From Candidatus Woesearchaeota archaeon (GTDB taxonomy: Archaea; Nanobdellota; Nanobdellia; Woesearchaeales; JABMPP01): 54,307 nucleotides of DNA. Positions 5,986 through 35,475 of this stretch are shown piece by piece. The stretch lies in NCBI GenBank assembly GCA_013202955.1, contig JABMPP010000111.1, positions 1-54,307 on the forward strand, written 5' to 3'. A model generated the notes under the pieces. It ran no database searches and had not been told where the DNA came from. It saw nothing but the letters and a program-made list of their open reading frames with translations. Made by a program: the position numbers and the translations under genes. Every line of letters starts with the position of its first letter. The first letter of the stretch is position 1.

Positions 5986-6086
5986 TTCTTAATAGAAAGC
6001 TTTAAATAGTTCTAATGCATATCATGTGTATATCAAATGCATATGGTGGTAATGTGATTTATAAAAATCATTGGAGGTGATTTTTA

Positions 6087-6613: not shown

Positions 6614-6641
6614 ATTATTTTTATTTCTTTAAACCAAAAAG

Positions 6642-6743: not shown

Positions 6744-7028
6744 ATGCGAACAGATCTAATATATTTCATATTAAGCTCGGAAAACAGGAAAAAGATAATT
6801 AAAACTATATTTGAATCCTCGAAAAAGCAATGGAGCTGCTCTTTTATTGAAGAAGCAACAAAAATTTCTCACTCAACTGTTTTTAGAACATTGATTAACC
6901 TAAAGGAGCTTAGGATTCTAAAGAGTGTCAGGATAAATAAAAAGGATTCAATATATGAGTTGAGCATTGAGCCGGAATTGCTAAAAGAGCTGGAAAGATT
7001 CACAAAAACAAAAAGAGGTGTTAGATAA
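6744..7028 (+). CDS. Winged-helix (ArsR/MarR-like) transcriptional regulator, first gene of the giant-protein cluster
   Basis: 94 aa. Has an HTH pattern (FIEEATKISHSTVFRTLINLKELRILKS) followed by a wing (RINKKDSIYEL). Its stop overlaps the next ORF's ATG (TAATG). Confidence 0.7.
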   Translation: MRTDLIYFILSSENRKKIIKTIFESSKKQWSCSFIEEATKISHSTVFRTLINLKELRILKSVRINKKDSIYELSIEPELLKELERFTKTKRGVR

Positions 7029-9250
7029 TGTTGTTTACCTCTAAACAAATCAAAAAATATATATATAAACTACACACATATTTTGATTTAAGTGGTTGTG
7101 GGGATAAAAAAGGGGATTTTTTGATAAACAAACATCTAAAAAACAAATGTATTCTACTTGTTTTAGTGTTATTCTTCTCATTTATGCTAAGCATTAGTTC
7201 AGGTTATGCTACTTTTGTTGATGGCTCAAATGGAGGGTTCAGCAAAGTGCCTGCTTTTAGTGTAAAAGAAGACAGACCAGGAACAGGTAATACTGATGGA
7301 GGCAGTTGTAATGTGAATTGGGACTCCGGAAGACCAGAAGATGATTTGAATTATGATAGAGGAGATTGTAGTTATGATAAAGAATTACAAACTGATGGGT
7401 GCTGGGTATTTGCTACTGAATATGATGGAGGATTTAAGGGTAAAGATGATTGTGCATACGGCAGAATTTATATAAATGACCAATGGGCAGGAGGTGGGTC
7501 TAGTTGTAATAAAGAGATTAATAGCTGGGTCAGCGGTCCTTCTGATGATGATGATGCAGAATGTCTTTTAGATTCTGGTAATTTTGCAATACCAAGTAGT
7601 TATTCAGATTATATTGCAACCTCGCAATTATGTGTTCTATATGATGGTGGTGGTAATGATATTGGTGGTTATTGGTATAGATGCGATTTAACTAATGAGG
7701 GATATGGACTGATAAGCAATGATGTGCAGTTCACATGCAAGGGAATTGTAGATGGTGATGATATTGACAGACTTTGCACAGGATACACATTTTTTTATCA
7801 ATGGGAAGAAACTGATAAGTGTGAGGATCTTGTTTCTGATGGTTTTTGCAGTAATGATTATGGGACAGGAACACCCAACACAATGTTTTCTGCTGGAACA
7901 GAGGGATGCAGAGATCTTTATGGGCAAGACACTGATCTGAGATGTGTAAAATCATCGGAGTGTAGAGATGGAACATGCAATGATGGAGAAGATTTTTCTT
8001 GGTGCCCAGATGACTGCCTTGCGGGTTTTATGTGGAGAAAAGTTGCAATAACATCAACTTCTGATTCCGGTTACCCTGGATTTGGCACAGAGCCTGGAGA
8101 TCAGGCTACTTGTGATAATCCAACTGACTGTGTTTTTGGAGGAGATTGCAGATCTCAGGGGGATTATAAAAGCACATCTTTTGGTCGTGTTGCCTGCTTT
8201 GGGGAAGAAATAAATATAATGGAGAATGCAATAATAGAAAATGATGTTGATTATAAGCCTAATTCAATTGGTATAGATTCACAAGGACATCTGCATGTTG
8301 TTTATATGGATGATGGCTATGTAACATATAAAAAATTTGATGGGACATGGTCAACACCAATATCAATAACAACAGAAAATGGTTATAAAAAACCTTCAAT
8401 TGCTGCTGATGGCAATAATATTTATCTTGTGTTCTTTCGTTCTTCCCTATCAAGCATAGTAAGAGGTATGTATTACACAAAATCAACTGATAATGGGGAA
8501 AATTGGCAAGCATTACAGAAGATAGCAGATATAGAATGGACAAACTCCCGACAATTAGAATCATGGTCATCAATAGCCACAAAAGGAAGCAGTGTTCACA
8601 TTACTTATTTTGATTATTATAACCTTACACACATAAAATCAACAAATAATGGAGGATCATGGTCAACACCAATCACAATTGGAGAGTTGTTGATTTCAGA
8701 TTATCCACATTCAATAGTTATTGGTTCTGACAATAAAGTTCATGTTTCATATGTAACCCATGTTCCTTATGGTGATGATTATTTAAAATATAGATATTAT
8801 TATGGAGGATCGTGGACAGCACAAAGAGGAATAGATAATAGTGGAAGAATTGGAGACACATCAATTGCTGTTGATTCAAATAATTTTATACATATAATTT
8901 ATAACACTAAGGATGCTTATGGTTCTAATAGAAAATTGGAATATGCAAATTCAAGTGATAATGGAGTAACATGGGAAAAAATATTATTAATGAATGGTCC
9001 AGATAATTTTAATTCAATTGGAATAGATGATTATAACAACATACATATGAGTTTTTATTCTGGGAGGCTTAGATATATAAAAAGAACAAATGAAGGAATA
9101 ACTTTAGTTAATACAATTGTTGAAGATCATGCAAGTAATGATGTTGGAATGTTTAATTCATTAGCAGTTGATGTTAATGGAAGAGTTCATCTAATTTATT
9201 CAGAAGGTACAACTGGTAATCTAAAATATACAAAATTAAATTTTGAATAG
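7028..9250 (+). CDS. Secreted Cys-rich protein with C-terminal BNR/Asp-box beta-propeller
   Basis: Signal-like segment KCILLVLVLFFSFMLSISSGYA. The N-terminal half is Cys/Asp/Gly-rich. Asp-box repeats are STDNGENW, STNNGGSW and SSDNGVTW, plus degenerate DGTWSTP and GGSWTAQ. An alternative in-frame TTG start at 7121 sits behind AGGGG. Confidence 0.8.
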   Translation: MLFTSKQIKKYIYKLHTYFDLSGCGDKKGDFLINKHLKNKCILLVLVLFFSFMLSISSGYATFVDGSNGGFSKVPAFSVKEDRPGTGNTDGGSCNVNWDSGRPEDDLNYDRGDCSYDKELQTDGCWVFATEYDGGFKGKDDCAYGRIYINDQWAGGGSSCNKEINSWVSGPSDDDDAECLLDSGNFAIPSSYSDYIATSQLCVLYDGGGNDIGGYWYRCDLTNEGYGLISNDVQFTCKGIVDGDDIDRLCTGYTFFYQWEETDKCEDLVSDGFCSNDYGTGTPNTMFSAGTEGCRDLYGQDTDLRCVKSSECRDGTCNDGEDFSWCPDDCLAGFMWRKVAITSTSDSGYPGFGTEPGDQATCDNPTDCVFGGDCRSQGDYKSTSFGRVACFGEEINIMENAIIENDVDYKPNSIGIDSQGHLHVVYMDDGYVTYKKFDGTWSTPISITTENGYKKPSIAADGNNIYLVFFRSSLSSIVRGMYYTKSTDNGENWQALQKIADIEWTNSRQLESWSSIATKGSSVHITYFDYYNLTHIKSTNNGGSWSTPITIGELLISDYPHSIVIGSDNKVHVSYVTHVPYGDDYLKYRYYYGGSWTAQRGIDNSGRIGDTSIAVDSNNFIHIIYNTKDAYGSNRKLEYANSSDNGVTWEKILLMNGPDNFNSIGIDDYNNIHMSFYSGRLRYIKRTNEGITLVNTIVEDHASNDVGMFNSLAVDVNGRVHLIYSEGTTGNLKYTKLNFE

Positions 9251-9258
9251 GTGAAAAA

Positions 9259-9501
9259 ATGAAAAAAATAGCCATAATGGTCATGATGTTGCTGCTAATC
9301 GGAACAGTCATAACAGGAGTGATAATGGCTGCAGGTTCAGGGGAAGATATTGGAGATCCCTGCAAAGAAGATTTATCTAGTTGTGAAAGCTGGTGCGAAG
9401 ATGCAGTAGTAGATGGTGAGATAAAAACCGCAGCTAATTTGCTGACAAATCCAAGCTTTGAGATAATAAGCATAATCTCTAGTACAGCACCAGAGGAATA
9501 A
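9259..9501 (+). CDS. Small secreted protein, paralog of the N-terminus of the following giant protein
   Basis: 80 aa with a signal peptide or TM segment (MKKIAIMVMMLLLIGTVITGVIMAAG). It carries CKEDLSSCESWCED....DGEI, the same C-x6-C-x3-C...GEI spacing as residues about 35-56 of the 9503 ORF. Confidence 0.55.
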   Translation: MKKIAIMVMMLLLIGTVITGVIMAAGSGEDIGDPCKEDLSSCESWCEDAVVDGEIKTAANLLTNPSFEIISIISSTAPEE

Positions 9502-9502
9502 T

Positions 9503-12500
9503 ATGAAAATATTGAATAACAAGCAGTCTGGTATTTTTTTATTAGCTTTAGTTATGCTTATTGCCGGCTCTTATAATGTCCAGCCAATTGGAACATGGTA
9601 TGATTGTGATTATAGTATACAAACCTGTGAAGATTTTTGTGATAATGATTGGGGAATAGCTGGAGAGATTGTTGGAGAATACACAGACACAACAACAGAG
9701 ATGTGCTGTGGTGATGATGCATCTGAAGAATTTTCAAGTTTTGGCAAAAGTATTAGTATTGCATGGGATCATAGTGATGTTGATATTTGTTGTGATGGTA
9801 ATTCATGTGTTGATCCATTCACATCAACATGCGAACCTGTTGGCCAGAAAGAATTTTCCGGTCAAACAGATGATAAGTATGCATATTGCAGTGGTTCAAC
9901 AAATTGGGCAGATTGTGATGGAGGAACAACAGCAACACCAATCTGTTCTATTCCTGATGGCTCATATGTTCCTGCAGGAGAGATTGTTGGAGAATATGAA
10001 GATTTGGAAACAATAGAGTTCTGCGGTGATGATGATGGTGAATATTACAGGCACAATCAAAATGGAGATGATTTTGGTGGGGATGGATGCTGTAACAGTG
10101 ACACTGATTGTGTTTATTATAACACTTCTTGGAATGATGCTGAGGGCGGTCACCCTATGACCTGCTTTTCAACAGGCACTCACCATCTTGGAAAATATTG
10201 TAATATTGGAGAATGGGAAGATCAGGATTACAGCCATGAAGTAACCCAAGATATTTATTCTGTTCCATACTGCAATTTTGAGGCTTCTAATACTACAGAT
10301 TACTTTGAATGTGATGTTTATTGTGACACTTATGATGATGAGGACCCAACAGATGGATTTTGCTGTGGAGATGACGCTGATGAATATTATATAGATGATA
10401 GAAGCACAAATGGTGGAAGAGCATGCTGTAATGATGACAGTTATTGTGTAGATTCTTCTAACGGGTGCAGAATAGGAACAGAGAATTATGAAACAAATAA
10501 TAGAGATGGCACTAATACCTGCACAGATGGTCTTGACAATGACTGTGATGGATCAATAGACAGTGCCCAGGAATTAAGTGACTGTCCATCTTGCGGAAAT
10601 GGTAACTGTAGTATTATGATAGTTGGTAATAATGAAGTGATTGAAAATGCAGCTAACTGTCCTGCAGACTGCATGGGAGAATTTGTTGGATGGGAGTTCA
10701 CTGATGATTCAAAAGTAAATCTTTCCAACACACAAACAAGAAACGGTTCATATTCACTTAATTTATTTGGAACAGGTTCTGTTGTTGCATTCCAAACAAT
10801 AGAGGGTTTAACAGAATATGACGCATATGTTGTATTTGGTCATGTAAAAAAGATTTCTGGTAGTCCGCTTGTTACAATGGTTGTTACTGATGGCCTTGGA
10901 AACACAATTGATATGTATGATTCAATAATAGCACCACCAGAATGGACAAGATTAGAGTTAGTTGTTGCTGTTCCTGTATCTGGAAAATTAAAAATCAAGT
11001 TAGCAAAACAAACAACAGGAAGTGTTGTTTTTGATGATGTTGCTGTTATAAAGAAGGATCATTATGTTGATGACCCTATTCCTTATTTTGATTCAAATTA
11101 TAGATATGGGTGCTGTGAACCAGACCAGTGCTGGACTGGGTTTGGATGCCAGGAGCTAACTGATGAGCATTTAGGATTTAATGAGAGTCCGGTTCCTGTT
11201 TGTGTAGAAGATGGAACAGATGTTTTATGGAAACTGCCTTATAAAAAACAGCATTGGTATTCTAATGTTATAGAAGAAAAAAGATATGCATATTGTCCAT
11301 TAGATAATCAATGCTGGCAATCAAGTGCAGGGGATGGTTTATCAGAAACAGTTGATATGTGTGTAAATAAAGGAGATATTTCAAGAGGAAAAGATATATT
11401 TTGTGATGGATGGACATCAAGAACAAGCTTGTTGGCTGCAAATATACTTAATCTCTCAAAAACATATGATGGGGATTTAACAGATCATGATGATTATACA
11501 TTAGTGTGCGACAGCGCAAGATGCTTTGATTGGCATAACATGGCCTTAGACTTAGATCTGCCAGGTGTGATGGATAATTGCAAAGACAGAGGGCTTGTGT
11601 GCACATACAAATCAGGAGACACTTTAATTGCAGGATTTTTGCTTGATAATAATGTCCCACTTCCTTCAGATCATGGTGATGGTTCATGTAATAAAGGTCC
11701 CAATTATTATCTTGATCCTTTTGAAACAGACCATCCTGACTCAAATCCTAAATGCTATCTGCAGGAAATATTAGGAATGAATTGGGGATACCAAAATGAT
11801 AATGCGCTTGTTATAGATTTTGATTTTGAACCATACTTTACTGATGCAGGAGTATATCAAAGTCCACATCCAAATTCTGTTTATCCTTTTACTGAAAATG
11901 TGCATAAAATACAAAGCATGGGATTCAACAATGCAACAAGAATGGTTATCTTCAGCAATGAAGAGTTATCTTATGAATCTCTTGGTGACGGAATTGATAA
12001 TAGCATATTAGGAGAAGAATTTGAGAGCTGGAAAAAATACAAAGATGGAATACTTGATATCCCAACTAATATTGTTGAGTTAAGTGATTGGTTCTTCCTT
12101 GCTGATGATAATTTTGACACAATAATGATAAACAAGAAAGGAGACAAAAGAGTTGAAGCAATAATAGAGACAAAATATAATCCATATAATTATTTTGGGG
12201 TTTTCTATGAGAATATTACATCAAATGAGATTTGCCAGAATCTTGAAAATACTTATATTGATCCTTTAGTTAGTGGACATTTTCCAGGCGAAATGCAATG
12301 GTATTTTAATTGCACAAACACTAGTGATTCATCTCATAGTTTTATAGGGTGTGGAAGTGCTATCTGGCCATGCTATGAAAATGAAGAGATGATTTATCAA
12401 GAAGATAGTTTATTTGCTGACAAGAAAAGATTTGAATATTATATCTGGAATGATTTAACAAAAAGATTTAGAGGATTTAAGGATTGTATTATGGAAGATG

Positions 12501-13939
12501 GTTATGATGTATCAAGCATTCCTGACTATTATATAGATAGTATGACAAATGAAGAAGACTTTATCTCTTATGAAAACAGGCAGACAGAAGGATGTTGTGA
12601 AACAGCACAATGTTGGGATGGGTTTGGGTGTGTTGATTCTTATTCACTATTTGATTATGATGGGGAAGACCCAACATATATATGTGTTGATGGAGATTGG
12701 GGATTAGGTTATAATAGCTCTGACTGGGAGAATGTTGAGAGTGGATATTGTGCTCATGAATACCAGTGCTATGTTTCAGGAACAGCTTATGATAATGAAT
12801 TTTGGGTTGGAAGTTATGATGAATCAGATTTTACACCTACAGGCTGCACAAAAGAGCCTGGTGCGTTTTATAATGACCATTATTGTCTGAACACAAACTG
12901 GACAACAAGAACTGCAGTGCTTGCAGCTGGATTCCTTAACTTTACAGAGCCTGCTGATGTTGGAGAGTTCACATTATTCTGCGACAACTATTCAAACACG
13001 CTTAATATTTATCAAGACATAAATTATAGTAACATGAACAAGGTATGTGTGTTGAAATATCATGACCTGGTTGAAGATAAAATAAAAGTTGCTGTTGGAA
13101 CATCATTGAATGATGATGTTTCTTTATTCCTTGATAGGATGCCTGATGTAAATGAAAATGCATGTGAGGGCAAGGGAGAGGATGGATTTGAGGCTTGCCT
13201 CTCTGATATATTATGGTGGGATGATAATAAGAAGATTATTGTTTATAATGAAGATGGTATGGAGTTCGGGCAGCAAGGATTCTTGCAAGAATTATGGGAT
13301 TTCTTATTGAACCCAATAGAGTCTGTTATTGACTGGGTAATGAGCTTATTTTCCGAAGAAACAATTACAGCTCCTGAGGACTTTGACAAGTTCTATGCTG
13401 TTAGACAAGAAGGAAGAAACATAAGCGCAGTTGTTGTTGAAAAGCATCAGCCATATGTGTTAATATCATACAGAGGATTTGTCACAAATATTACAAGCAC
13501 AATGCAAAGAAGAGATGAGATGATTGAGGTAAGTGAAACAGGAGATGGATTTGATGTTTCATCAACAGTGTTTGATATCCTGAACAGAGATTGGACATCA
13601 ATCACTGCAAGATTAAGATTAAAGCCAATGAGTCTTATCAATGATCCACCTGTTGTTAATATGCCCGATATACAGCTTAATGAGGATTTGTTTGCAATTA
13701 TTGGTTTGGATAATCGTGTTGATGATCCTGATAACTTAGATTCTGAGATAACATGGACATATTCAGGAAACACACATATAAATATCATTATCACTCCAAC
13801 AACTCGTGTTGTTATATTCTCAAATAGATCCAGTTATGTTGGAGAGCCAGAAATAATCACTTTCACAGCAACAGATCCTGAAGGACTGTCTGATTCAGAT
13901 GACACAACAGTTAGTTCGCCATTATTAATACCAAGATAA
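9503..13939 (+). CDS. Giant (1478 aa) secreted Cys-rich surface protein with CBM-like jelly-roll, duplicated CCE..QCW.GFGC modules and a C-terminal cadherin/Ig-like domain
   Basis: Single uninterrupted ORF with an N-terminal hydrophobic anchor. Contains GEIVGEY...CCGDD repeats, a CTDGLDNDCDGSID motif and a CBM4/9-like segment (GWEFTDD...VFDDVAV). A module of about 495 aa is duplicated internally. The C-terminal segment PPVVN...ITFTATDPEGLSDSD is Ig/cadherin-like. Confidence 0.85.
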   Translation: MKILNNKQSGIFLLALVMLIAGSYNVQPIGTWYDCDYSIQTCEDFCDNDWGIAGEIVGEYTDTTTEMCCGDDASEEFSSFGKSISIAWDHSDVDICCDGNSCVDPFTSTCEPVGQKEFSGQTDDKYAYCSGSTNWADCDGGTTATPICSIPDGSYVPAGEIVGEYEDLETIEFCGDDDGEYYRHNQNGDDFGGDGCCNSDTDCVYYNTSWNDAEGGHPMTCFSTGTHHLGKYCNIGEWEDQDYSHEVTQDIYSVPYCNFEASNTTDYFECDVYCDTYDDEDPTDGFCCGDDADEYYIDDRSTNGGRACCNDDSYCVDSSNGCRIGTENYETNNRDGTNTCTDGLDNDCDGSIDSAQELSDCPSCGNGNCSIMIVGNNEVIENAANCPADCMGEFVGWEFTDDSKVNLSNTQTRNGSYSLNLFGTGSVVAFQTIEGLTEYDAYVVFGHVKKISGSPLVTMVVTDGLGNTIDMYDSIIAPPEWTRLELVVAVPVSGKLKIKLAKQTTGSVVFDDVAVIKKDHYVDDPIPYFDSNYRYGCCEPDQCWTGFGCQELTDEHLGFNESPVPVCVEDGTDVLWKLPYKKQHWYSNVIEEKRYAYCPLDNQCWQSSAGDGLSETVDMCVNKGDISRGKDIFCDGWTSRTSLLAANILNLSKTYDGDLTDHDDYTLVCDSARCFDWHNMALDLDLPGVMDNCKDRGLVCTYKSGDTLIAGFLLDNNVPLPSDHGDGSCNKGPNYYLDPFETDHPDSNPKCYLQEILGMNWGYQNDNALVIDFDFEPYFTDAGVYQSPHPNSVYPFTENVHKIQSMGFNNATRMVIFSNEELSYESLGDGIDNSILGEEFESWKKYKDGILDIPTNIVELSDWFFLADDNFDTIMINKKGDKRVEAIIETKYNPYNYFGVFYENITSNEICQNLENTYIDPLVSGHFPGEMQWYFNCTNTSDSSHSFIGCGSAIWPCYENEEMIYQEDSLFADKKRFEYYIWNDLTKRFRGFKDCIMEDGYDVSSIPDYYIDSMTNEEDFISYENRQTEGCCETAQCWDGFGCVDSYSLFDYDGEDPTYICVDGDWGLGYNSSDWENVESGYCAHEYQCYVSGTAYDNEFWVGSYDESDFTPTGCTKEPGAFYNDHYCLNTNWTTRTAVLAAGFLNFTEPADVGEFTLFCDNYSNTLNIYQDINYSNMNKVCVLKYHDLVEDKIKVAVGTSLNDDVSLFLDRMPDVNENACEGKGEDGFEACLSDILWWDDNKKIIVYNEDGMEFGQQGFLQELWDFLLNPIESVIDWVMSLFSEETITAPEDFDKFYAVRQEGRNISAVVVEKHQPYVLISYRGFVTNITSTMQRRDEMIEVSETGDGFDVSSTVFDILNRDWTSITARLRLKPMSLINDPPVVNMPDIQLNEDLFAIIGLDNRVDDPDNLDSEITWTYSGNTHINIIITPTTRVVIFSNRSSYVGEPEIITFTATDPEGLSDSDDTTVSSPLLIPR

Positions 13940-13972
13940 GGAAATGAATAAAAACATTTATATATATTTAAG

Positions 13973-16900
13973 ATGAAAACAATGAATAAGATGCAAAAAA
14001 GTGGGTTTGTAGCAATCTATCTAATAGTACTTATGATAAGCCTGCCTATTTATTCTTCTGTTGTTTATGGGTTATATGCTAATACTCCTTATGTCTATGG
14101 AAATGATAATATCCGTGATTATAGACGAGAAACTGATGTTCTAAATGTTAAGGTTGAGAACATTGACTTTCAAAATGATTATACTCAAATATTAAAAGAT
14201 TATCTTCTTCTTGTCCCAAGTGGAATAAGCCCTCTTCCTTTCACAACACCAAGTTCGGTATGTTCAGATGGAGTGCCTGCCACATGCACATATGTTGCAA
14301 CAGGCCCAAACACATTCACACCTCAAGCTAAATCAGGATGGCGTGTTGCGTTTTATAATGATACACAAAGAAACAATTATCTTGGAAGCACTGACACATT
14401 CAGCTTTTATATTGACGGAGAAGCTCCTGTTGTAACATTGAATCAACCAGTGGGAACAGTTGATGGATTAAGTGTGCCATTTATGGTGCAGGAATTAAGC
14501 GGTGGAGGTCCAAGTGCTTTATGCTCAGGTATAAGTGAGATTATAATATATGGAGAAGAAACAGACACTAATGATTTTAGAGAACTACGCAGGATAATTA
14601 TTGATGAGGCATGCACCTCAAACACAGACACTGTTGATGAATTAAGTGGATACCCTATAAGCAATAATCTTGTTAAATCAATGCTTGGTCTTGGAAATGA
14701 TGTTTATGATATCACAATCTGTGTTGATGCATATGACAGATTAGGCCAGCCAGATAATAGAGAAGATAACAGGCAATGCAGTGACCCATTTACATATGAC
14801 TTAGAAGCTCCAAGTATTGATTCATTTAATATTGAAACAATGGATGGAAGAGATATCAATACTATATATATAAGTGATGGAGACACTTCACTAAATATAA
14901 TTGTTACTGTTTCCAATGATCCTACCTCAACAATAACAGGAGATTTCTCATATTTCAACCGAAATTATGCTGATCTTACAATAAATTGTGTTAATGGATT
15001 ATGTGAAGAAACAATAACTGTAAGTAATACTGTTGTGACAGGAACTGCCCAAATTACAATAATTGCAACAGATGAGTTTGGAAACACTGATGAATATCCA
15101 GGAACATTCACTGTAAGTGTTGATAGTTTTAATCCTGTGTTGGAGTCAGTAAAGAGTAATATGGTTTTTGATGGTATTAGCTATGTAAAAGCTAATGAAA
15201 ATTCTATGAGTGCTGTTATTAATGAAACAGAAAGCGGATTCTTAACACAAAAGCCATCGCTTACACAAAATCCATCGTTTATGGGTGTTCCTGCTGATAC
15301 TTGCGCAGAACATGCATCTGCTGGTCAATGGACATGCAATTGGGATGGTTTTAATTTCACTGGATTAAGTGATGGAACTATTTACCCCCTTGCGCCAGTC
15401 AGTTTATCAGGAACAGATGATGCAGGGAATGATATTGTTACCTCTTCATGCACTACTGAGTGTAGTGTGACTGCTGATATTGTTGCACCTAATATTTCAT
15501 TAGATGTTAATGGTGGAGCAACTGTCGCTGTTGGTGATGATTTAGCCATAAACGCAACATTCACTGAATCAAGTTCTGGATTTGCTGGAACTTCTGCAGC
15601 TTCTGTTCAAGCAGCATCAAGCTGTGGATTAAATCTTATATCATGTTCTTCACCAGAGACTAGAGGGAATCTATGGTGTTATTGGGAGGGAAACGTTGCT
15701 GACATAACATGCATGACAAATGAAATTACCTTTTCAATAGAAGATAGAGTGGGAAATGTTGGAGAATATATTGAAAAACTCCAGGATGATATAGCTCCTA
15801 AAATTGTAAGCCTAACAAGCTATGGAGATTTTGTTGGAAAAGCGAATGATTTTATGGCAGTAATAAATGAAGTTGGAGCTGGGATAAGCAAAGAAAACAT
15901 TAAAATGACCAGCACTGAGTTAGATGTTTCAGCAAAAGAAGCAGATAGCTGTGATGGAGCAACTGGAGATGTAAACTGCTATTGGTATAATATTACTTAT
16001 GACGGAAATGCAGGAAGTGTAACTGTTAGTTTGGATGTTGCAGATAATGTAGACCCAGTACCAAACACAAACAGCTCTTCAAAAACATTTAATGTTGATG
16101 TTACAGCACCAACTGGTGGAGATGTTTTTATACAGGAGATAGAAGACCTTAGAACAGAATATTTCCAATCAGGGGATAAATTATCAATAAAAGTGAGTGG
16201 GATTGAAGATTCTCAATCAAGTTCTATAAAAGGAATGTTAAATGCTTCAGAGATAGGACTTTCTGATAATTATGAAATAACCTGCATTAATACAACACCT
16301 TCTGAAGATACATTTGAGTGTGAATGGTATTGGGATGAATTAACCCCAAATCTTGAAATCCCTGCTAGTGTGATTGGAAGAGATAAAACATTAAGATTTA
16401 AGTTTTTGGACCACACTGATAATGTAAATGAGGGAATTAATGCTGTTATTGATGTGTTGGAATCAGAAGACGCTACAGAACAAAGATATGTGATGGTTGT
16501 TAGTGAACCTTCACCTGTTGAAAGATTAGACAGACAAGTATTAGCCACAACAGGAAATGTTCCAATATTCTTCCCTGTCAGTTTTACCAAAAAATTAGAA
16601 ACACAGCAAACAATATTATTTGAAAAATCTGCAGACTGTTCTTCAGGATTGGATGTTGTGCAACAAAGCCTATTTATGACAGAAAGATTAAGATCAAGTA
16701 GTACCAGAGTAAGAGATAATCTAAAATTATTAATTGGGACATATGGAGGACAACCATTGCAACCAGAAGACACCTTAGTTGATTCATTTGAAGTTGATTG
16801 CACAATTACAATAATATATGATGATGAGAATGATGACAAGATATACACAGAGACTCATGAGGTTTCTAGTTTAGAGATTCCTCTTTATAGAAGTCCTGTT

Positions 16901-18154: not shown

Positions 18155-18155
18155 A

Positions 18156-24377: not shown

Positions 24378-24387
24378 GTGTATAATC

Positions 24388-26589: not shown

Positions 26590-26590
26590 A

Positions 26591-27361
26591 ATGAAATCAT
26601 ACTTTAAGAAACAAAAGAAGGTATTTATAGAATCAATAAAAGACTGTTTAAAAATAAAAAAAACATTTAAAATTGCCGGAGTTGATTTTTTAGGCTATTC
26701 TTTAATAATATTTATCTCTTTAGTCATCACAGGTTATTTGAATTATTTAATGAGTAAAGTGTTGTTTTTTGGAGCCTTGGAAAAAGAGGAGCTAATAGGA
26801 AGTATTGCTCTGATGGATTCTTTTTTGTTTGCCTATACAAAATTTAAAGTATTGACAATTTTCCTAACAATATTACTTTTACTGATAACTTATTTTATAA
26901 TCGCAGTATTTAAGGGTGGAATTTATTCAAGCATCTTAAAGAAAAAACTTTATTGGGGGCATATTTGGAAGAAATTTTTATTAAATATTATTTGGTTTAC
27001 ATGCTGGATTGTAATTTTATTGGTTACTATCCTTATTTTAAGAAACACAGTGATGGTTTATGTATTTTGGATATTGGTATTACTTATTTTTCATCTAACA
27101 CCAATTCTATATCTTAAGTTCACCCAGAAAGATAAAATATTTAATTCTATAAAAGAAGCATTAAAAACAGGTTTTAAAAAGATACATCATTTTATAATTC
27201 CTTATTTAGTCATATTACTTTATTTTATTTTAATCTCATTTATTGGTTATTTTGTTTCTCTTGCATCAGAAACATTATCTGTGATCATTATTGTCTTATT
27301 ATTATTTGATTTAGTTACCTGGTCAAGATATTATATTATTAGGGTTATAAAGTACTACTAG
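26591..27361 (+). CDS. Polytopic membrane protein (about 5-6 TM helices), function unknown
   Basis: 256 aa with repeated long hydrophobic stretches separated by K-rich loops. It starts 1 nt after the upstream stop. Confidence 0.65.
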   Translation: MKSYFKKQKKVFIESIKDCLKIKKTFKIAGVDFLGYSLIIFISLVITGYLNYLMSKVLFFGALEKEELIGSIALMDSFLFAYTKFKVLTIFLTILLLLITYFIIAVFKGGIYSSILKKKLYWGHIWKKFLLNIIWFTCWIVILLVTILILRNTVMVYVFWILVLLIFHLTPILYLKFTQKDKIFNSIKEALKTGFKKIHHFIIPYLVILLYFILISFIGYFVSLASETLSVIIIVLLLFDLVTWSRYYIIRVIKYY

Positions 27362-27450
27362 TAGGAAAAGTAATACTTTAATGGGGTGAAAAACGTAAGT
27401 TACGGAAAACAAAGTTTTTCTATGTTAGAAAATCTTCGATTTTCGAAACC

Positions 27451-27459
27451 TTTATATAT
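27451..27459 (+). promoter_or_regulatory. TATA-box-like element for the second transcription unit of the cluster
   Basis: tttatatat lies about 50 nt upstream of the ATG at 27510, in the only sizeable intergenic gap of the cluster. It is preceded by short inverted repeats. Confidence 0.4.
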
Positions 27460-27509
27460 CATTAAAGTAAGAATAGTACTATTAGTATGAAAAGTATGAC
27501 TTTAAAACA

Positions 27510-27656
27510 ATGAAAAAAGGAGTAACAAAGGACAAGATTAGCATTTCTCTTGATAAAGAACTACATGAAAAGCTAAAAGAGCATTGTGAAAAAAACATGG
27601 TTAAGCTCTCAACATATATAGAGCATCTTATAAAAAAAGGACATAAAGGAAAATGA
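27510..27656 (+). CDS. Small ribbon-helix-helix (CopG/Arc/MetJ-like) protein, absent from the ORF track
   Basis: Hand translation gives MKKGVTKDKISISLDKELHEKLKEHCEKNMVKLSTYIEHLIKKGHKGK (48 aa). It shows a beta-strand, helix, helix RHH pattern. The stop TGA at 27654-27656 overlaps the ATG at 27653 of the next gene (ATGA). Confidence 0.6.
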   Translation: MKKGVTKDKISISLDKELHEKLKEHCEKNMVKLSTYIEHLIKKGHKGK

Positions 27657-29545
27657 AAAAAAAGAGAGGTCAAATTACAACGTTTATTGTAATGGGAATG
27701 ATAATAATACTATTGCTTTCTATATTTATCTACTTAAGGCAGTCAACAACATTTTTTAATCCAGAGAAAGTGCTGCCTGCTGAGTTTGTGCCTGTGAAAA
27801 GATATGTAGAGCAGTGTGTTGAAACAACAGCAAAGGATGCTGTTTTCCTTGCAAGTATGCAGGGAGGTTATGTAGAATTGCCTCTTTGGATAGAAAGTGA
27901 TCCAGACAGCTATGTTGGAGAAGGGCTAAAGATTCCTTTGTGGTTTTATAATGGTCAGAATAGAATGCCAGAATTAGGAGATATTGAAGATGGCATAGCA
28001 GAGCATGTAAACTCAAATCTAAAAAATTGTTTAGGAAATTTTGAAGGGTTCAGTGAGCAGTTTGATATAATGGAAATAGCTGAACCAGTCACAACAGTTT
28101 CTATAAGTGATGATAATATATTCATAAGAACAGAATACCCATTAAAGATAGCAAACAAGCAAGGCACTGAAACAACTGATTGGGAGGATTTTGTTTCTAC
28201 ATTTGAAGACAGCTTAGGAAAGAAATACAGACTTGCATCCTTAATAATGAACCATGAGAATGAAAATTCTTTCCTTGAAGCGCTCACAATGGAGATGATT
28301 GCTACATCTGATTTCCCAAATGAAGGATTAGAGTTAACATGCGGAAAAAGAGAGTATGATATTGATGAGGACCTTGTTCCATCATTAAAACTAATGCTTC
28401 TGGCAAATTTAAGGTATCTGACATTTGAAAATACCCAGACAAGAGAGCTTCCAACAGAATATCATGAAAATCTCTACAGATTCACTGTTACAAGGAAGGA
28501 TTTCTCTGATTTGAGAGTTGATGCAATGTTTGACAGAGATTCTGATATTATAATGGATGTTTATCCACAGGAAAACAGAATTGTAGAGCCAGTAAACCTT
28601 AATGTGCCTTTTATAAACACCTGCTTTAAGATATATAATCACAAATATGATATTTATTATCCATTAACATTCCAGATAATTGACCAGGGAGAAGAACCAA
28701 GTTATTTCTTGTTCTCAACTCCTGTTGTAATTGATAATAGTGCACCAAACAGAGTTTATGGTATTAGGGAACCATTAATAGAAGACACAATAAACCAAGG
28801 AGATTATTGTGAAGACAAACAGTTTATGTTAAATGTGTATGCTATAGATGAATACACAAATGAGTTTATTCCTAATGCTGATATAAAATTTCAATGCGTA
28901 AGATTCATGTGTGATATGGGCACAACCTCAATAAGAACAATTGATGATGGATTGGTTCCAGATGCTTCTGATTTTGTGCTTGAAACAGAATTCCCAGCAT
29001 GTGGGGGGGGATTCTTAATAGCAGAAAAAGAAGGTTATATGAGGGGATTCACCGAGGACATATTAACAGGAGAGGTAACAATAACAGGAGAAACACATGT
29101 GTATGAAGGAGAGCAACATAATATTTACATGACACCATTAAAAACTCTTGATTATAGAGTGCTGGTTGTTGAATTTGAAGGGAATGAAACAATCCCAAAT
29201 ATTAGGGAGCTAGAGGATGATGAGATTGCAATAATAAAACTCACAAATGAGGATAAGGATTATAGTGAAACCCTTATTTATCCATTTGAATATAATTTAT
29301 ACAGCAACATAACGCTTATAGTTGGTGATTATACATATGGGATTGATATAACTCTGATGCAAAATGAAACATACACAGGTGGGTTAATAGGAGATTGGGA
29401 CACAACCGGAAACAGCATTTATAGTGCAGAGAGAATTGATTTTTATGTTTTAAAGAAAACAGAGGATCCTGTTGAAACAAATTATGTTGGATTGGCTGAA
29501 CTTATAGATTTAGCTTCACTAGATTATACCCCAAGAATAAGATGA
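27653..29545 (+). CDS. Large (630 aa) protein with class III (pilin-like) signal peptide, paralog of 24388..26589
   Basis: N-terminus MKKKRG/QITTFIVMGMIIILLLSIFIYL. Shared blocks are PV..YVEQCV......F.LA..QGG.V, LK[IV]P.W.Y and N..L..CL..F. A CarboxypepD_reg-like segment is also present. Confidence 0.8.
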   Translation: MKKKRGQITTFIVMGMIIILLLSIFIYLRQSTTFFNPEKVLPAEFVPVKRYVEQCVETTAKDAVFLASMQGGYVELPLWIESDPDSYVGEGLKIPLWFYNGQNRMPELGDIEDGIAEHVNSNLKNCLGNFEGFSEQFDIMEIAEPVTTVSISDDNIFIRTEYPLKIANKQGTETTDWEDFVSTFEDSLGKKYRLASLIMNHENENSFLEALTMEMIATSDFPNEGLELTCGKREYDIDEDLVPSLKLMLLANLRYLTFENTQTRELPTEYHENLYRFTVTRKDFSDLRVDAMFDRDSDIIMDVYPQENRIVEPVNLNVPFINTCFKIYNHKYDIYYPLTFQIIDQGEEPSYFLFSTPVVIDNSAPNRVYGIREPLIEDTINQGDYCEDKQFMLNVYAIDEYTNEFIPNADIKFQCVRFMCDMGTTSIRTIDDGLVPDASDFVLETEFPACGGGFLIAEKEGYMRGFTEDILTGEVTITGETHVYEGEQHNIYMTPLKTLDYRVLVVEFEGNETIPNIRELEDDEIAIIKLTNEDKDYSETLIYPFEYNLYSNITLIVGDYTYGIDITLMQNETYTGGLIGDWDTTGNSIYSAERIDFYVLKKTEDPVETNYVGLAELIDLASLDYTPRIR

Positions 29546-32500
29546 AAAACAACAAATTACCAATAATTGTATTGTTTTTGATAGTTTTACTTCCAACCTC
29601 GTATGCTCTTGTTATTGAATTTATTAGTGTGACAACTTTTGAAGATTATGCATTAGTTGAATGGAGCACTGATGTTGATGCTAATTCCGAAATTGAATAT
29701 GGAACAAATGAATCACTTGGGATATTTGTTGAGAACGACGAATACTTAACAGAACATTTAATGAATATATCTGAATTAGAACAAAACACTGATTATTTCT
29801 TTGTTGTAACATCATGCACAAATGAAAGTGTGTGTGAATCATCTGATATGGAGAGCTTTTCTCTTTTAGGTGATAATCCTGTGTTTAACCTAACAATAAC
29901 AATGGATGAGCTTCCAGATAAGGTAAACACAACAAGATATATTTTATCAGGTGTGACAGAAGGAAATGTTCTTATTAGAGCTTATATTGATATAGATGAA
30001 AACCCAGATCCCATTCTTATAACTCATGTTGATGGCACATCCAATCATGCAATCACAACTGATAATGTTACAGGTATTTTTGAGGGCATAATATCTCTTA
30101 ATCCAGGATTTAACAACATAACATTAAAAGGAAGGAAACAAGGTAGAATAAGCAGTATAGACCTGCTTGTTTATGCTGATGTTGTAATACCCAGAGTTTC
30201 TTTAAATCCTATTCCTGAGGCAGTAAGAAGCGAAATGATTTATATCTCAGGCACTGTAACTGAGGAGGCACTTATAGAAATATTTTCTGATAATAACATT
30301 GTTTATGTGTTTAATGTTCCTATGGGACCATTTAATAGATCAAATATTTCAATTGGAGAGGTAAATGATGGGAATGAAGAGTTCTTTAATATTAGCTTAA
30401 GAGCAACAGATGATGTTGGTAATTCAGATACTTCAAACACATATAATATAAAAGTGGACAAAAAAGCACCTGAAATAGATTTTATAACAGATTTTAACCT
30501 AGCAACACATTCAACAATACTCAAAATAGAGGGAAACACAGAACCCTATGCAAATGTAAAGATAACAAACATAGGAAATTTCACAGATATATTTAGATTC
30601 AGAGAAGAAAGTGCTGTTAGCTTAATACAAATGGATCCAACCGGGCGTATATTAGGAAATGAAAGAGAGGCAACAGCAGATTCAGATGGTTATTTTAGTG
30701 TTAGTGTAAGTTTATTTCTTGGTTTTAATAACTTTTACATCAATGTTAGTGATAAGGTTGGAAACAGCATAGGTGAACATGAGAGCATCAGCTCGATTCC
30801 TGGTTCTGTTAATTGGTATGCATCGCAGGTTGAAGGTTACCCAACAAATATTTATTTTGAGGATATGGGGCCTGGATTTGATGCAACAGCATTTGTTGTT
30901 TTAGATTGGGTTGGTGGATTGGATGCACCTGTTGAAGCTGATGTAAAAAATGCAAGAATAGATGACAGAAGCAGAGGAGACAACCAGCTTATAAGTGATG
31001 TATCAGAGATAAAATCATATTATGACAGCACAAACAAGAGATTATATTCATTATTATCAGTCAAGGTAAAGCCATGGGCAGGAACAGCTGATGAATTGTT
31101 TGATCATCTTACTGATTCTATTCCAAAAGTTGATTTTGAAAAGCAACTTATAGCTCATTTTGAGCTTAGTGTGCAGGAAAAATATGCTGATGGATCATCA
31201 ACAACAGTAAAAAAATATGATAAAGTGGCTTATGCTGTTCAAAAGCCAGAGAATCTTGCCAAATGGCTTCCTCCTGAGATGATAAATGCAACATTGAAGA
31301 ACTTTATCAACCCTGCCATTAATATATTAGAAAAAGCAAAAGAATACACATTGTATCTAACAGGAGGATTTTTAGTGGGATGTGGTGCATCTATTGCTGC
31401 AAATTATATTGCTGCATTACTGCCAGATGCAGACACTGAGAAGTTTAAAAAAGCAATGTATTGGACATGTGACAGAGTTCTGTGTCCGACTGTTCCACCA
31501 ATGTGTGATGAAGAGTTTAAGGGTGGAGGGAATTCATGGACATTAGAAGAAGGAAAAGATAGGATAGATGTTGTGTATATGAATTATGATAATCTTGATC
31601 CAGATGAAAGAAGAAAACATAGATGTCCTAATGGAACAAAAGTTCTTATTCAAATCAATAAATTCAAAAAAGTGTCAAATCTTTTTGGATTAGGAAATGA
31701 TATAACTGAGACAAGAGAGCCTGAGTATTACTGCAGTGATAATAGCCCAACAGAATTAGGACAACCACGTGGACAGACTTTCCTTGGTTGCTTTAATAAG
31801 GAAGCTCCTGACTATGATGGTACAAAATGCTGGCTGGATGACAGCACATCAAAAGGAATAAACCCAAGAGCAGGGTTTTTCAGCTCATTCAAATGTGGAT
31901 GTACACCAGCAATGTATGGTTATTCAGCAAATACCTTAAAGGTCTTTGAAGGACTTGAGAAATGCATGCAACAGGCAATGATAGGAGAGGTTGCATCTGG
32001 GTTCTGCGAAAGAATGCTTTTAATGTATGGATGTGATGTTGCAACTGATTTGTTTAAATATGCTTTTGGTGAGGTGTTTGCTGAAGGTGTTGGAAAAGGA
32101 GACAGAGGGGCTGTTGGTGGATATAAGGAAAGAGCTGAGGAAATAAAAAGCTCATTAGTTGGAAGATATGGTGACAGCATACATGAAACAATGGGATTAT
32201 CACCTGAAAAGCTTGTTAATGATGCATGTTTGTTTGCGTTTACAGGAGATTTACAATTATTTGAGGGTGCGCTTGAGCAGTTTATTCCAACAGTGCCAAT
32301 AGCACCTTATGCGTTGGTTATGGCAAGCTCAAGACAGAATGGGTATGACCCATTTATAGGACAAATGAATGTTGATTATAATATTTATGTTGGAATTGTG
32401 CCAGGAGGGCCAACAGAGGTTGAGCTAAAGCTTGTGTGTGACAAAAGCAGAGATGGTGGAGAATATTGCCCTGCACAAAGAGAAGAAGTTCTTGTAACTC

Positions 32501-33960
32501 AGAATCTGCCAAGATTCCTTGACAGAGATGATTTTATTGACAAGAATATATTATATCAAGCAAATCCTGCAAGATTCTGGTATAATGAAGTTGTGCTTAC
32601 ATTGAGATACAGCTTAGGTAATGTGTCAGATGTAAAAACAATCAGACAATCAATAAAAAGACATGATGATCTTGCTTATGGGTGTTCATTTTCCTTACCT
32701 TATGGGATAAGTTGTAGTTCTATTTCAATAGATCCATCTGGATTTGCTGAGCTAATGCCTACAATGGGTGGGGTTGTTGGAACACATGTGTCACCATCAG
32801 ACACAATAACATATTATCCTGACAATAAGTTTGGATTATTAACAAAGATACACAATAATTATGGTGAAGAGTTTTATGTTAATATAGAACTAGAAGAGCC
32901 AAACGGCTGGAATGAATCAATACAATACAAAATAAACCCAAGCTTTGCTCCAAATGGAGAAACACAGTTTTATAATTTTCTTGTGGGAATACTTGGAAAT
33001 GATGTTGGTGCAGAAGGTGTTATTTATACTGGAGATGTAAATATTGATGGTAATTTGGTTACTGAACATGAGGGAGAGGGAAATGATGCAAAAGGAGTTG
33101 TTTACCTGAAATCCAACTTGGTTGATAAAACACAAGCTGTTAAAAATGGTCAAAGTTGGTGTGATGCCGCAACAAGTGTTGATGAACCAAATAGATGTGT
33201 GCTTGAATCTAGTATTCTAGAGGTTGTGAACGCAAATGAGCTACATAGGATTGATATATACAATGACACAAATGAAACATTGTTAATAAGCAGCATAAAT
33301 ATTATAACTGAGACAAGAGCATATTCTTCAGGAAACTATAGATTAAATATAGATATAATGAGAGATGTGAGCGGTGATGGAAGAGGAGATACTCAGATAC
33401 CATATGACACAAATTCCCAGGAATTAATGTTTGGATTTGGGGCTGAGAACAGAATACCTGAAAACTGTAACAGAAAACCAACTGTTGATTTAATAGAACC
33501 TATTGGGGATTATTTACCAAGAGGACCAAATCAGGAATTTATGATAGGCGCAAACATAGTTGATGACTGCAACATGATTGAATCAATCATAGTTAGTGTT
33601 GAGGAGAATAACAATGTGTTGTGTGAAATAACAAAAACATTAACCCCAGAGGATATTACAGATTCAAACAATAACTTTAATGATTGTGCATTAACTGTTG
33701 GAAGCTTGCCAGATGATAAGAGTGTGAATGAGGGAGGAACCCCACCTTATTATTCATTTAACTTAAATACAATGGATTTAACAGTTGGACATACAGATTC
33801 AAGTAATCCAAAATATTATGACATAAGATTCAAGGTAATAGATACTTCTGGCCAGGAAAATGAAGTCACAAAAACATTTGAAGTTGGAAATGTAACTATT
33901 AGTGAAATATCATTAAAACAAGTAACTGAAGATATGAAAATAGAAAAAATAAATATTTAA
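29542..33960 (+). CDS. Giant (1472 aa) secreted protein: FN3-like N-terminal domain, Ig-like domains, Cys-rich core
   Basis: ATGA overlap with the upstream gene. Sec signal MKNNKLPIIVLFLIVLLPTSYA. FN3/purple-acid-phosphatase-N-like segment (ALVEWSTDVDANSEIEYGTNESLG...TDYFFVV). Ig-boundary motifs DVVIPRVSL and DKKAPEIDF. Core motif CGCTPAMYGY...C...C. Confidence 0.85.
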   Translation: MKNNKLPIIVLFLIVLLPTSYALVIEFISVTTFEDYALVEWSTDVDANSEIEYGTNESLGIFVENDEYLTEHLMNISELEQNTDYFFVVTSCTNESVCESSDMESFSLLGDNPVFNLTITMDELPDKVNTTRYILSGVTEGNVLIRAYIDIDENPDPILITHVDGTSNHAITTDNVTGIFEGIISLNPGFNNITLKGRKQGRISSIDLLVYADVVIPRVSLNPIPEAVRSEMIYISGTVTEEALIEIFSDNNIVYVFNVPMGPFNRSNISIGEVNDGNEEFFNISLRATDDVGNSDTSNTYNIKVDKKAPEIDFITDFNLATHSTILKIEGNTEPYANVKITNIGNFTDIFRFREESAVSLIQMDPTGRILGNEREATADSDGYFSVSVSLFLGFNNFYINVSDKVGNSIGEHESISSIPGSVNWYASQVEGYPTNIYFEDMGPGFDATAFVVLDWVGGLDAPVEADVKNARIDDRSRGDNQLISDVSEIKSYYDSTNKRLYSLLSVKVKPWAGTADELFDHLTDSIPKVDFEKQLIAHFELSVQEKYADGSSTTVKKYDKVAYAVQKPENLAKWLPPEMINATLKNFINPAINILEKAKEYTLYLTGGFLVGCGASIAANYIAALLPDADTEKFKKAMYWTCDRVLCPTVPPMCDEEFKGGGNSWTLEEGKDRIDVVYMNYDNLDPDERRKHRCPNGTKVLIQINKFKKVSNLFGLGNDITETREPEYYCSDNSPTELGQPRGQTFLGCFNKEAPDYDGTKCWLDDSTSKGINPRAGFFSSFKCGCTPAMYGYSANTLKVFEGLEKCMQQAMIGEVASGFCERMLLMYGCDVATDLFKYAFGEVFAEGVGKGDRGAVGGYKERAEEIKSSLVGRYGDSIHETMGLSPEKLVNDACLFAFTGDLQLFEGALEQFIPTVPIAPYALVMASSRQNGYDPFIGQMNVDYNIYVGIVPGGPTEVELKLVCDKSRDGGEYCPAQREEVLVTQNLPRFLDRDDFIDKNILYQANPARFWYNEVVLTLRYSLGNVSDVKTIRQSIKRHDDLAYGCSFSLPYGISCSSISIDPSGFAELMPTMGGVVGTHVSPSDTITYYPDNKFGLLTKIHNNYGEEFYVNIELEEPNGWNESIQYKINPSFAPNGETQFYNFLVGILGNDVGAEGVIYTGDVNIDGNLVTEHEGEGNDAKGVVYLKSNLVDKTQAVKNGQSWCDAATSVDEPNRCVLESSILEVVNANELHRIDIYNDTNETLLISSINIITETRAYSSGNYRLNIDIMRDVSGDGRGDTQIPYDTNSQELMFGFGAENRIPENCNRKPTVDLIEPIGDYLPRGPNQEFMIGANIVDDCNMIESIIVSVEENNNVLCEITKTLTPEDITDSNNNFNDCALTVGSLPDDKSVNEGGTPPYYSFNLNTMDLTVGHTDSSNPKYYDIRFKVIDTSGQENEVTKTFEVGNVTISEISLKQVTEDMKIEKINI

Positions 33961-35457: not shown

Positions 35458-35475
35458 CTCAGAAACATAGTCATG

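Follow-up and report, generated by a model that had tools for sequence, protein, structure and literature searches.

A recurrent cassette of prepilin-signal proteins and giant cysteine-rich secreted proteins as a candidate surface-contact module of Woesearchaeota and Nanoarchaeota

Archaeal type IV filament loci (systems 1 and 2, with subsystems 4A/4B/4G) are the closest described kind of gene cluster to the locus reported here. In such loci, large cysteine-rich proteins resembling adhesins or surface-layer (S-layer) proteins are reported to be encoded beside proteins with class III signals (PMC4858521; bioRxiv 10.64898/2026.04.22.720090). A survey of DPANN protein families found that most lineage-specific families are without a function prediction, and it predicted a membrane-bound or extracellular location for many of them (PMC8204110). 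In metatranscriptomes of Woesearchaeota, archaellin (flaB) and separately annotated S-layer genes are among the top transcripts (PMC11606122), and another Woesearchaeota-focused study leaves pili, adhesins and S-layers unmentioned. Here we analyze a stretch of 54,307 nt (hereafter the window) from contig JABMPP010000111.1 of assembly GCA_013202955.1, Candidatus Woesearchaeota archaeon (JABMPP01), taken on its forward strand. The window contains an array of eleven genes, g01 to g11, at positions 6744-33960; array features are on the + strand throughout.

The original prediction made for this DNA had described eleven packed same-strand genes that take up half of the window, an export or anchor signal on every large product, cysteine-rich secreted products, and no recognizable enzyme, ATPase, secretin, integrase or phage gene. 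All of these points were borne out. The listing of open reading frames (ORFs) places the eleven genes on 50.1% of the window, joined by overlaps or by gaps of 33 nt or less with the single exception of a 148-nt gap at 27362-27509. A hydropathy scan revealed an N-terminal hydrophobic segment in each large array product. The exported array products contain 2.77% cysteine, versus 1.09% in the remaining proteins of the window. Searches of Pfam, NCBIfam and PHROGs detected no enzyme, ATPase, secretin, integrase or phage family among the array products, nearly all of which have no match in these three collections or in the PDB.

Genes g05 to g11 (13973-33960) recur as a conserved cassette in distant lineages, and we propose, with moderate confidence, that they encode a surface module specific to Woesearchaeota and Nanoarchaeota in which prepilin-type anchors would display giant Sec-exported proteins for contact or adhesion. 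The presumed anchors are the products of g07 and g10, here called PIL-A and PIL-B, and the giants are those of g05 (giant-A) and g11 (giant-B). Like archaeal type IV filament loci, the cassette places a prepilin-type signal on large, non-canonical proteins with a presumed role in adhesion, and these are neighbored by very large secreted proteins with immunoglobulin (Ig)-like folds and many conserved cysteines. Unlike those loci, it has no linked ATPase, platform protein, peptidase or small pilin in the neighborhoods examined. Its PIL proteins are 630-770 residues long and contain a novel alpha/beta domain, its giants contain a novel cysteine-rich core, and its overall architecture is that of a duplicated anchor and giant pair with a small polytopic membrane protein of its own. 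The claim that no system of this composition had been described needs to be narrowed, since the filament loci provide a precedent (PMC4858521; 10.64898/2026.04.22.720090); it holds for the PIL family and for the cassette itself, of which no description was found in the literature searched.

The conservation of the cassette was assessed in gene neighborhoods of about 15 lineages whose PIL-B proteins are 24-66% identical to g10. These loci, referred to by L numbers, were fetched with flanks of ±10 kb and annotated by BLAST and hidden Markov models. The conserved elements are giant-A, a variable secreted protein (X; g06 in the window), PIL-A, the membrane protein g08, PIL-B and giant-B. A giant resembling g11 lies directly after PIL-B in 13 of the 14 informative lineages, and in five loci (the window, L004, L006, L013 and L016) the two genes share a 4-nt overlap of start and stop. 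The minimal form, consisting of the PIL-B and giant pair alone, was found in L001/L014, L007/L017, L009 and L013. A fuller, two-module form adds PIL-A, a g05-like giant, the variable secreted protein and g08 just upstream of PIL-B, and is wholly or partly visible in seven loci (the window, L004, L006, L010, L016, L022 and L023); the contigs of L006 and L016 end within the upstream giant, for which a match to g05 is either weak or not detected. The order in the window, L004 and L006 is giant-A, X, PIL-A, g08, PIL-B, giant-B, and L016 follows it from its truncated, unassigned upstream giant onward. In L010, L022 and L023 the order is PIL-A, giant-A, X, g08, PIL-B, giant-B; the cassette of L010 begins directly at PIL-A. 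Because the order of g05 to g11 is kept while the orthologs are only 25-55% identical, its conservation exceeds what chance would produce.

The original prediction had raised the question of whether homologs are clustered or scattered in related genomes; they are clustered, with g05-g11 recurring across distant lineages. Its treatment of the 27-kb array as a single unit is upheld for g05-g11 as a conserved cassette and is not supported for the remainder, as g01-g04 were not found elsewhere and g09-g11 possess a conserved putative promoter/operator region of their own. Two loci depart from the common arrangement of the giant: in L012 a divergent PIL gene is followed by a giant of at least 2626 residues without a detectable core, and L020 encodes its giant in two separate genes. 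In the latter locus (positions 1-9109, HN419 lineage of Woesearchaeota) the cassette adjoins a glycan-synthesis cluster with Wzy_C, several glycosyltransferases, a UDP-glucose dehydrogenase and an epimerase.

PIL-A (g07; 24388-26589, with an alternative start at 24367) has 733 residues and the class III signal KTKKA/QVTLFILIG, and PIL-B (g10; 27653-29545) has 630 residues and the signal KKKRG/QITTFIVMG, where the slash separates positions -1 and +1. A class III signal consists of a short basic leader with a small residue (Gly, Ala or Ser) at -1 and a hydrophobic stretch of about 20 residues from +1. In 146 of 166 sampled PIL members the N-terminus fits K-[KR]-[GAS]/Q-[IVL]-[TS]-x-F-I-I-x-G and continues into a hydrophobic stretch, and conservation of this degree exceeds the need of a plain membrane anchor. 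The spacing of the motif matches that of the archaeal QxSxExxxL-type motif (Pfam PF04021), a profile that itself gave no score at E ≤0.01. From their sequences, the PIL proteins are well supported as carriers of a genuine class III (prepilin-type) signal motif.

Downstream of the signal, g10 comprises a proline-rich linker, a cysteine-containing alpha/beta domain, CarboxypepD_reg-like beta-sandwiches and a C-terminal [YF]xPx[LI] motif. Cysteine positions are conserved in the extracellular domains of the PIL proteins. The C-terminal motif closes nearly every family member (in g10, residues 623-630, window positions 29519-29542); Pro627 is invariant in the closer set and nearly so across 60 diverse members, and the motif could be a docking strand. 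The two PIL proteins of the window are paralogs (24% identity over 573 residues, E 4e-20) that fall into distinct orthologous groups, each protein resembling its counterparts in other genomes more closely than its own paralog. The duplication is therefore older than the lineages compared.

A full HMMER profile search against 1.84 billion representatives of 50%-identity clusters showed that the family is very large, with 8387 clusters at E ≤1e-3, 5851 at ≤1e-10 and 1557 at ≤1e-30. Its members are mostly full-length proteins of about 620-700 residues (about 630-770 for those of the cassettes), and all named members, the named relatives of g10 included, are hypothetical proteins assigned to Candidatus Woesearchaeota or Nanoarchaeota. 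Against Pfam the family gave only single chance-level matches, and its profile retrieved nothing significant from the PDB. A word-indexed protein search had returned only 11 matches for g10 and 3 true homologs for g11, and with the g11 core as query it returned nothing, not even the query itself. The apparent rarity of the PIL family was rejected on these grounds, the word-indexed search having undercounted this set of low-complexity, fast-evolving proteins by nearly three orders of magnitude relative to HMMER.

An AlphaFold2 (AF2) model of g10, with a mean confidence (pLDDT) of 78.8, displays in order an N-terminal helix (residues 4-31), a low-confidence linker (28-37), the alpha/beta domain with helices at 43-70 and 108-133 and a four-stranded sheet at 137-185, two or three sandwiches of the CarboxypepD_reg-like type, then a helix near the C-terminus and a short strand that closes with the [YF]xPx[LI] motif. 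In a pilin fold, a long N-terminal helix runs unbroken into, and lies packed on, a four-stranded antiparallel sheet. No type IV pilin is found among the 50 listed PDB matches of a Foldseek search with this model. Its matches to sortase-type Gram-positive pilins and to phage baseplate proteins were put down to the likeness of sandwich domains to one another. A pilin fold has no good support from the model. The description of g07 and g10 as pilin-like proteins is consequently retained for the class III signal motif alone, given that the model matches no type IV pilin and that no filament machinery or small pilin is linked to the genes.

Giant-A (g05; 13973-18154) is a 1393-residue protein with a Sec-type signal and a cysteine-rich C-terminal region. 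It has orthologs in L004, L010, L022 and L023 and a weaker, partial match in L006. Giant-B (g11; 29542-33960), of 1472 residues, combines a Sec signal with weakly matched N-terminal fibronectin type III (FN3)/Ig-like domains, a cysteine-rich core and a variable C-terminus. The g11 family has a conserved core flanked by variable termini, with lengths of 1472-2100 residues. Alignments place this core at residues 590-1130 (about 540 residues; window positions 31309-32931), preceded by a moderately hydrophobic helix at residues 609-627. It contains 67 positions that are invariant across seven lineages, of which 16 are cysteines, and its motifs include YWxCDRvLCPxxPP, CGCxPG, KCxQQAxIGxVxxGxCERxxxxxxCD, SRxxGYDPFxG..YNxYxGxVPGG and LxCDRxxxGGExC. 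The core has no sequence match in Pfam or the PDB, and an AF2 model computed from three sequences reached a pLDDT of only 38.7 and was set aside.

A comparison of the g11 core with the C-terminus of the g05 family using hhalign revealed a shared segment, CxCxPG...C...C...C, with a probability of 86.9% and an E value of 4.1e-6. A global alignment of full-length g11 with the g05 family was weak (probability 37%), so that the focused core comparison alone is informative. Judged by this profile alignment, giant-A and giant-B share part of the cysteine-rich core by homology. The pairs PIL-A/giant-A and PIL-B/giant-B are, on the evidence of their sequences, two anciently duplicated anchor and giant pairs.

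The variable third position of the cassette is taken in the window by g06 (18156-24377, with an alternative start at 18147), a 2073-residue secreted protein with a cysteine-rich C-terminal half. Pfam domains found above threshold are CHB_HEX_C_1, Fn3_assoc, PKD, He_PIG and three copies of CarboxypepD_reg. The protein contains a tandem internal duplication of about 460 residues (289-737 and 749-1198, 30-45% identity). BLAST self-comparison was blind to this duplication, and to the one in g04 described below, until the proteins were cut into fragments. A homolog of g06 is present only in the close relative L004, and the corresponding slot of L010, L022 and L023 is occupied by unrelated proteins. 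The beta-sandwich domains originally assigned to the giants are thus secured above the Pfam threshold only in g06; in g04 and g11 the Ig/FN3-like hints (Big_9, Glucodextran_B, Big_13 and Pur_ac_phosph_N) are weak and sub-threshold.

Between PIL-A and PIL-B lies g08 (26591-27361), a polytopic membrane protein of 256 residues with five or six transmembrane segments by hydropathy. Homologs occur in eight lineages (L004, L006, L010, L016, L020, L021, L022 and L023); the sole invariant residue of their alignment is Asp32 in the first transmembrane segment, and Trp244 is nearly invariant. The possibility that g08 is the missing prepilin peptidase was rejected, because it has no Peptidase_A24 match and a single conserved aspartate, without the two-aspartate/GxGD signature. 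The 148-nt gap that follows g08 is part of a putative internal promoter/operator region (27351-27517), in which a 43-nt direct repeat (27351-27393 and 27475-27517) flanks a TATA-like element, TTTATATAT (27451-27459). The TATA box and both copies of the repeat are kept in L004, where the neighboring proteins are only about 50% identical.

The next gene, g09 (27510-27656), encodes a 48-residue ribbon-helix-helix (RHH)-like protein, and its end overlaps the start of g10 by 4 nt. It is 77% identical to a 47-residue gene product in the same position in L004. The RHH assignment of the original prediction finds a counterpart in Pfam RHH_3 (E 3.6e-4) and is borderline, as the score of 20.9 bits is just below the cut-off of 21.6. 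Together with the conserved repeat-flanked promoter, g09 would control g10 and g11 separately. In other lineages, the slot held by g09 between g08 and PIL-B is often filled by a nucleotidyltransferase gene. Such small nucleotidyltransferase genes (NTP_transf_2/Polbeta/DUF6932) recur in or beside the cassette (L006 7989-8826; L021 7956-8796; L022 8684-9915 and 19132-20159; L023 20168-22054) and are probably toxin-antitoxin-like.

In the mechanism that we propose for the anchor-and-giant module, a prepilin peptidase (of the PibD, FlaK or EppA kind) encoded elsewhere would clip the short basic leader of each PIL protein, whose hydrophobic N-terminal helix would then remain in the membrane or occupy the base or the tip of a short type IV filament. 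Outside the cell, the alpha/beta and sandwich domains would grip the partner giant through its conserved cysteine-rich core and so expose the variable Ig/FN3-like termini of the giant for contact with other cells or surfaces; g08 would be a partner within the membrane. Of these steps, we infer the cleavage of the leader by a peptidase, the physical pairing of PIL and giant, and the role in adhesion from the arrangement of the genes and the signals that they encode.

Several results weigh against the module as proposed. Neither in the window nor in any ±10 kb flank of the roughly 15 lineages was there an ATPase or a platform protein (PilC/FlaJ/TadC) of a type IV filament, a prepilin peptidase or a small major pilin; the carriers of a class III motif in these neighborhoods are the PIL members and g05, whose signal is read as Sec-type, and no small pilin is among them. 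With no linked ATPase, platform protein or pilin, the cassette does not qualify as a type IV filament locus. In the AF2 model of g10, the low-confidence, proline-rich and yet conserved linker parts the N-terminal helix from the globular region, and Foldseek searches of the PDB and BFVD retrieved only generic sandwiches of the Ig/FN3/CarboxypepD_reg type, with TM-scores, normalized by query length, of at most 0.17. UBA583 (L011/L019) has a pair of PIL-like genes and lacks a g11-like giant within 10 kb. N-glycosylation sequons show no consistent enrichment (observed/expected 0.18-1.37) and are uninformative on surface exposure. In UBA583 (positions 6991-12016 and 12515-14814) the PIL-like genes encode 775 and 678 residues; at the usual place of the giant are opposite-strand ORFs of 384 and 375 residues, whose cysteine-rich N-termini look radical-SAM-like by eye only.

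The cassette can be further compared with three described arrangements. As in the case of bacterial PilY1/PilC and the minor pilins, a large non-pilin protein is encoded beside prepilin-signal proteins, and g02 of the array may contain a propeller-like domain. Unlike in that system, the partners in the cassette are not small minor pilins, and with no homology detected the likeness is one of mechanism only; neither the C-terminal propeller of PilY1 nor DUF2341 was matched in any giant by Pfam or NCBIfam. The Sulfolobus bindosome proteins, which have class III signals, are cleaved by PibD and are retained at the surface, resemble the PIL proteins in being large and globular, with a linker after the hydrophobic helix, and in not being usual filament subunits. 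They differ in that the PIL proteins have no match to a substrate-binding-protein fold or family, no Bas assembly genes accompany them, and a giant partner is present. SlaA and SlaB of the Sulfolobales are likewise encoded by adjacent genes, for a smaller, anchored protein rich in beta-sandwiches and a beta-sandwich protein of about 1400 residues or more. In SlaB, however, the anchor is a C-terminal helix with a coiled coil, whereas in the PIL proteins it is the N-terminal prepilin-type helix; there is no sequence similarity, the proteins of the cassette are cysteine-rich, and their pair is duplicated. No known S-layer family or structure was matched by sequence in Pfam, NCBIfam or the PDB, and no match to a characterized S-layer, adhesin operon or virus, named in the original prediction as a refuting result, was found.

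These comparisons bear on two other readings of the pairs. PIL-A and PIL-B might be minor or tip subunits of a true type IV filament whose machinery is encoded elsewhere, with the giants carried at its tip as PilY1/PilC are with minor pilins in bacteria. Strong conservation of the class III signal, which extends to +3, +5 and +9 of the mature helix, suggests packing of the helix against other pilins, and the closing [YF]xPx[LI] could act as a docking strand. Tip complexes joined by beta-strand addition are reported (PMC13533445), as are PilY-like and large adhesin-like proteins in archaeal filament loci (PMC4858521; 10.64898/2026.04.22.720090). Against such a tip complex stand the absence of filament core genes and small pilins from the approximately 15 neighborhoods, the failure to detect a PilY1/DUF2341 domain, and the g10 model, in which the N-terminal helix does not run on into the globular domain, and we regard it as unlikely. 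Somewhat less likely again is that the pairs build a two-component envelope lattice analogous to an S-layer, with PIL as the stalk and the giant as the canopy (cf. SlaB/SlaA), and are not adhesins. The PIL family is spread very widely through the clade, with a number of 50%-identity clusters that by rough estimate is similar in order of magnitude to the species diversity; minimal genomes have exactly one PIL-B and giant pair, overlapping genes fit a fixed stoichiometry, and the products are acidic and rich in beta-sandwiches. Against this reading, high cysteine content is unusual among S-layer proteins, and that of the cassette products is high. A plain stalk would have no need of the conserved prepilin-type motif, similarity to any S-layer family or structure is lacking, and separately annotated S-layer genes are already among the top transcripts of Woesearchaeota (PMC11606122).

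Two further readings were considered. That the array is a co-located island of fast-evolving secreted proteins with no physical interaction would agree with the orphan status of most products, the filling of the g06 position by unrelated proteins across lineages, the apparent restriction of g01-g04 to the window lineage, and the insertion of toxin-antitoxin-like and nucleotidyltransferase genes within the cassette in several lineages. We consider it very unlikely, since PIL-B and giant-B stay adjacent and in order, often overlapping by 4 nt, even where identity has fallen to about 25%, and both members of the pair were duplicated together. A provirus or mobile element equipped with receptor-binding or fusion proteins is suggested by giants that are orphans rich in beta-sandwiches, by the tail and baseplate proteins that Foldseek retrieves among viral models, through generic sandwich domains only, and by a YafQ/RelE toxin-antitoxin pair that closely precedes the array. 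Pfam and PHROGs gave no sign of an integrase, a capsid, a terminase or a replication gene, and none of the products tested (g02, g04, g05, g07, g08, g10 and g11) has a PHROG match; the sole PHROG match is a weak one to a family of unknown function, in a downstream gene (35476-36513). Neither the PIL family nor the g11 core has a relative among the viral contigs of IMG/VR. The GC content, of about 0.30-0.37 along the window, is flat across the borders of the array, and the GC skew tracks the coding strand. The window also encodes an archaeal TFIIB, a methionyl-tRNA synthetase, a GMP synthase and tRNAs, and similar housekeeping genes stand beside the pair in two related lineages: the 38-47 kb region shows synteny with the sequence flanking the homologous pair in a different lineage of Woesearchaeota, with TFIIB 89% identical, and the locus is therefore chromosomal. 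Judging from this gene content and synteny, the locus is archaeal and chromosomal, and an origin as a mobile element is essentially excluded.

The first four genes of the array have no homologs in the fetched loci of other lineages, where flanks are limited to ±10 kb, and appear to be lineage-specific accessory additions outside the conserved cassette. Upstream of g01 is a putative promoter/operator (6643-6743) consisting of a TATA-like element, TTATATAT (6643-6650), and, after it, five AGTTCA half-sites (6652-6741). The window contains 29 AGTTCA matches in all, five of which lie within the 90 nt upstream of g01, and inverted repeats were found in the same region. The gene itself (6744-7028) encodes a 94-residue winged-helix regulator of the FUR/ArsR type. 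Its initial assignment as a winged helix-turn-helix regulator is corroborated by Pfam FUR (E 3.4e-7, 30.9 bits, above the cut-off of 23.1); the match to NCBIfam ArsR/SmtB is weak. Through the AGTTCA operator array this protein would control g01-g04. Probably there are two transcription units, with g01-g08 controlled by the winged-helix protein and g09-g11 by the RHH protein.

The product of g02 (7028-9250) has 740 residues, 24 of them cysteines, and comprises an N-terminal anchor or signal, a cysteine-rich region and a C-terminal half resembling a BNR (Asp-box) beta-propeller. The propeller assignment made earlier is favored by Asp-box-like motifs, two canonical (STDNGENW and SSDNGVTW) and one with Asn in place of Asp (STNNGGSW), and by an internal repeat (residues 411-496 and 560-652), but the BNR_2 score of 29.2 bits is just under the Pfam cut-off of 31.4. 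The short g03 (9259-9501; 80 residues) encodes a single hydrophobic N-terminal segment and an acidic tail with three cysteines, and has no family match above cut-off in Pfam or NCBIfam. The giant g04 (9503-13939; 1478 residues) has the highest cysteine content of the array (67 cysteines, 4.5%), a duplicated cysteine-rich module (residues 512-585 and 1002-1075) and a weak C-terminal Ig-like domain, hinted at by a sub-threshold Big_9 match (E 0.014); it has no sequence match in the PDB.

Just upstream of the array, a 95-residue ORF (6326-6613) matches the YafQ/RelE toxin family TIGR00053 with an E value of 2.4e-16, below the curated cut-off, and is overlapped by an 84-residue ORF without a family match (6087-6341). 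The region 6087-6613 is likely, by its sequence, a type II toxin-antitoxin pair. On the other side, three convergent genes on the - strand (33957-36513; 256, 218 and 345 residues) run up to the end of g11, where the stop regions overlap by 4 nt. Their products contain no cysteine, no transmembrane or strongly hydrophobic segment by hydropathy and no family match above cut-off, and among the fetched loci they are conserved only in the closest relative (L005). These genes, g12-g14, were rejected as members of the system, as only the closest relative has them and their products lack both cysteine and a strongly hydrophobic segment. About 15 kb from the array is a glycosyltransferase of the PMT_2/GT87 type (49109-50506). 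A tRNA-Ser (GGA) at 41996-42081 coincides with the opening 86 nt of the cyclophilin ORF as listed (41995-42645), the true start of which is probably downstream of the tRNA because its Pfam match begins at residue 67. At 54187-54303, on the - strand, Rfam reports a tRNA of 117 nt (45.8 bits) that ARAGORN does not report, and its length suggests an intron-containing archaeal tRNA.

Woesearchaeota and Nanoarchaeota account for a large part of the uncultured diversity of archaea and are presumed to live in attachment to other cells, and we know of no protein that mediates their cell contact. What is new in the cassette is a very large unannotated family of prepilin-signal proteins (more than 8000 clusters at 50% identity), a giant partner that almost always follows the PIL gene and has a conserved cysteine-rich core without a sequence match in Pfam or the PDB, and the architecture of a duplicated pair with a small membrane protein. 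A bolder version of the proposal would make it a self-contained, Woesearchaeales-wide surface machine that operates without a type IV filament motor, in which g08 would organize two paralogous heterodimers of prepilin-type anchor and giant, and the conserved core with its hydrophobic helix would form a new fold that engages or inserts into the envelope of a partner cell; we think this quite unlikely. If true, such a motor-free machine would be the long-sought host-contact device of a large uncultured DPANN clade. The PIL and giant families can serve as markers for the annotation of thousands of hypothetical DPANN genes, and the cassette represents a testable candidate for how the cells of a major uncultured archaeal group may touch other cells or surfaces.

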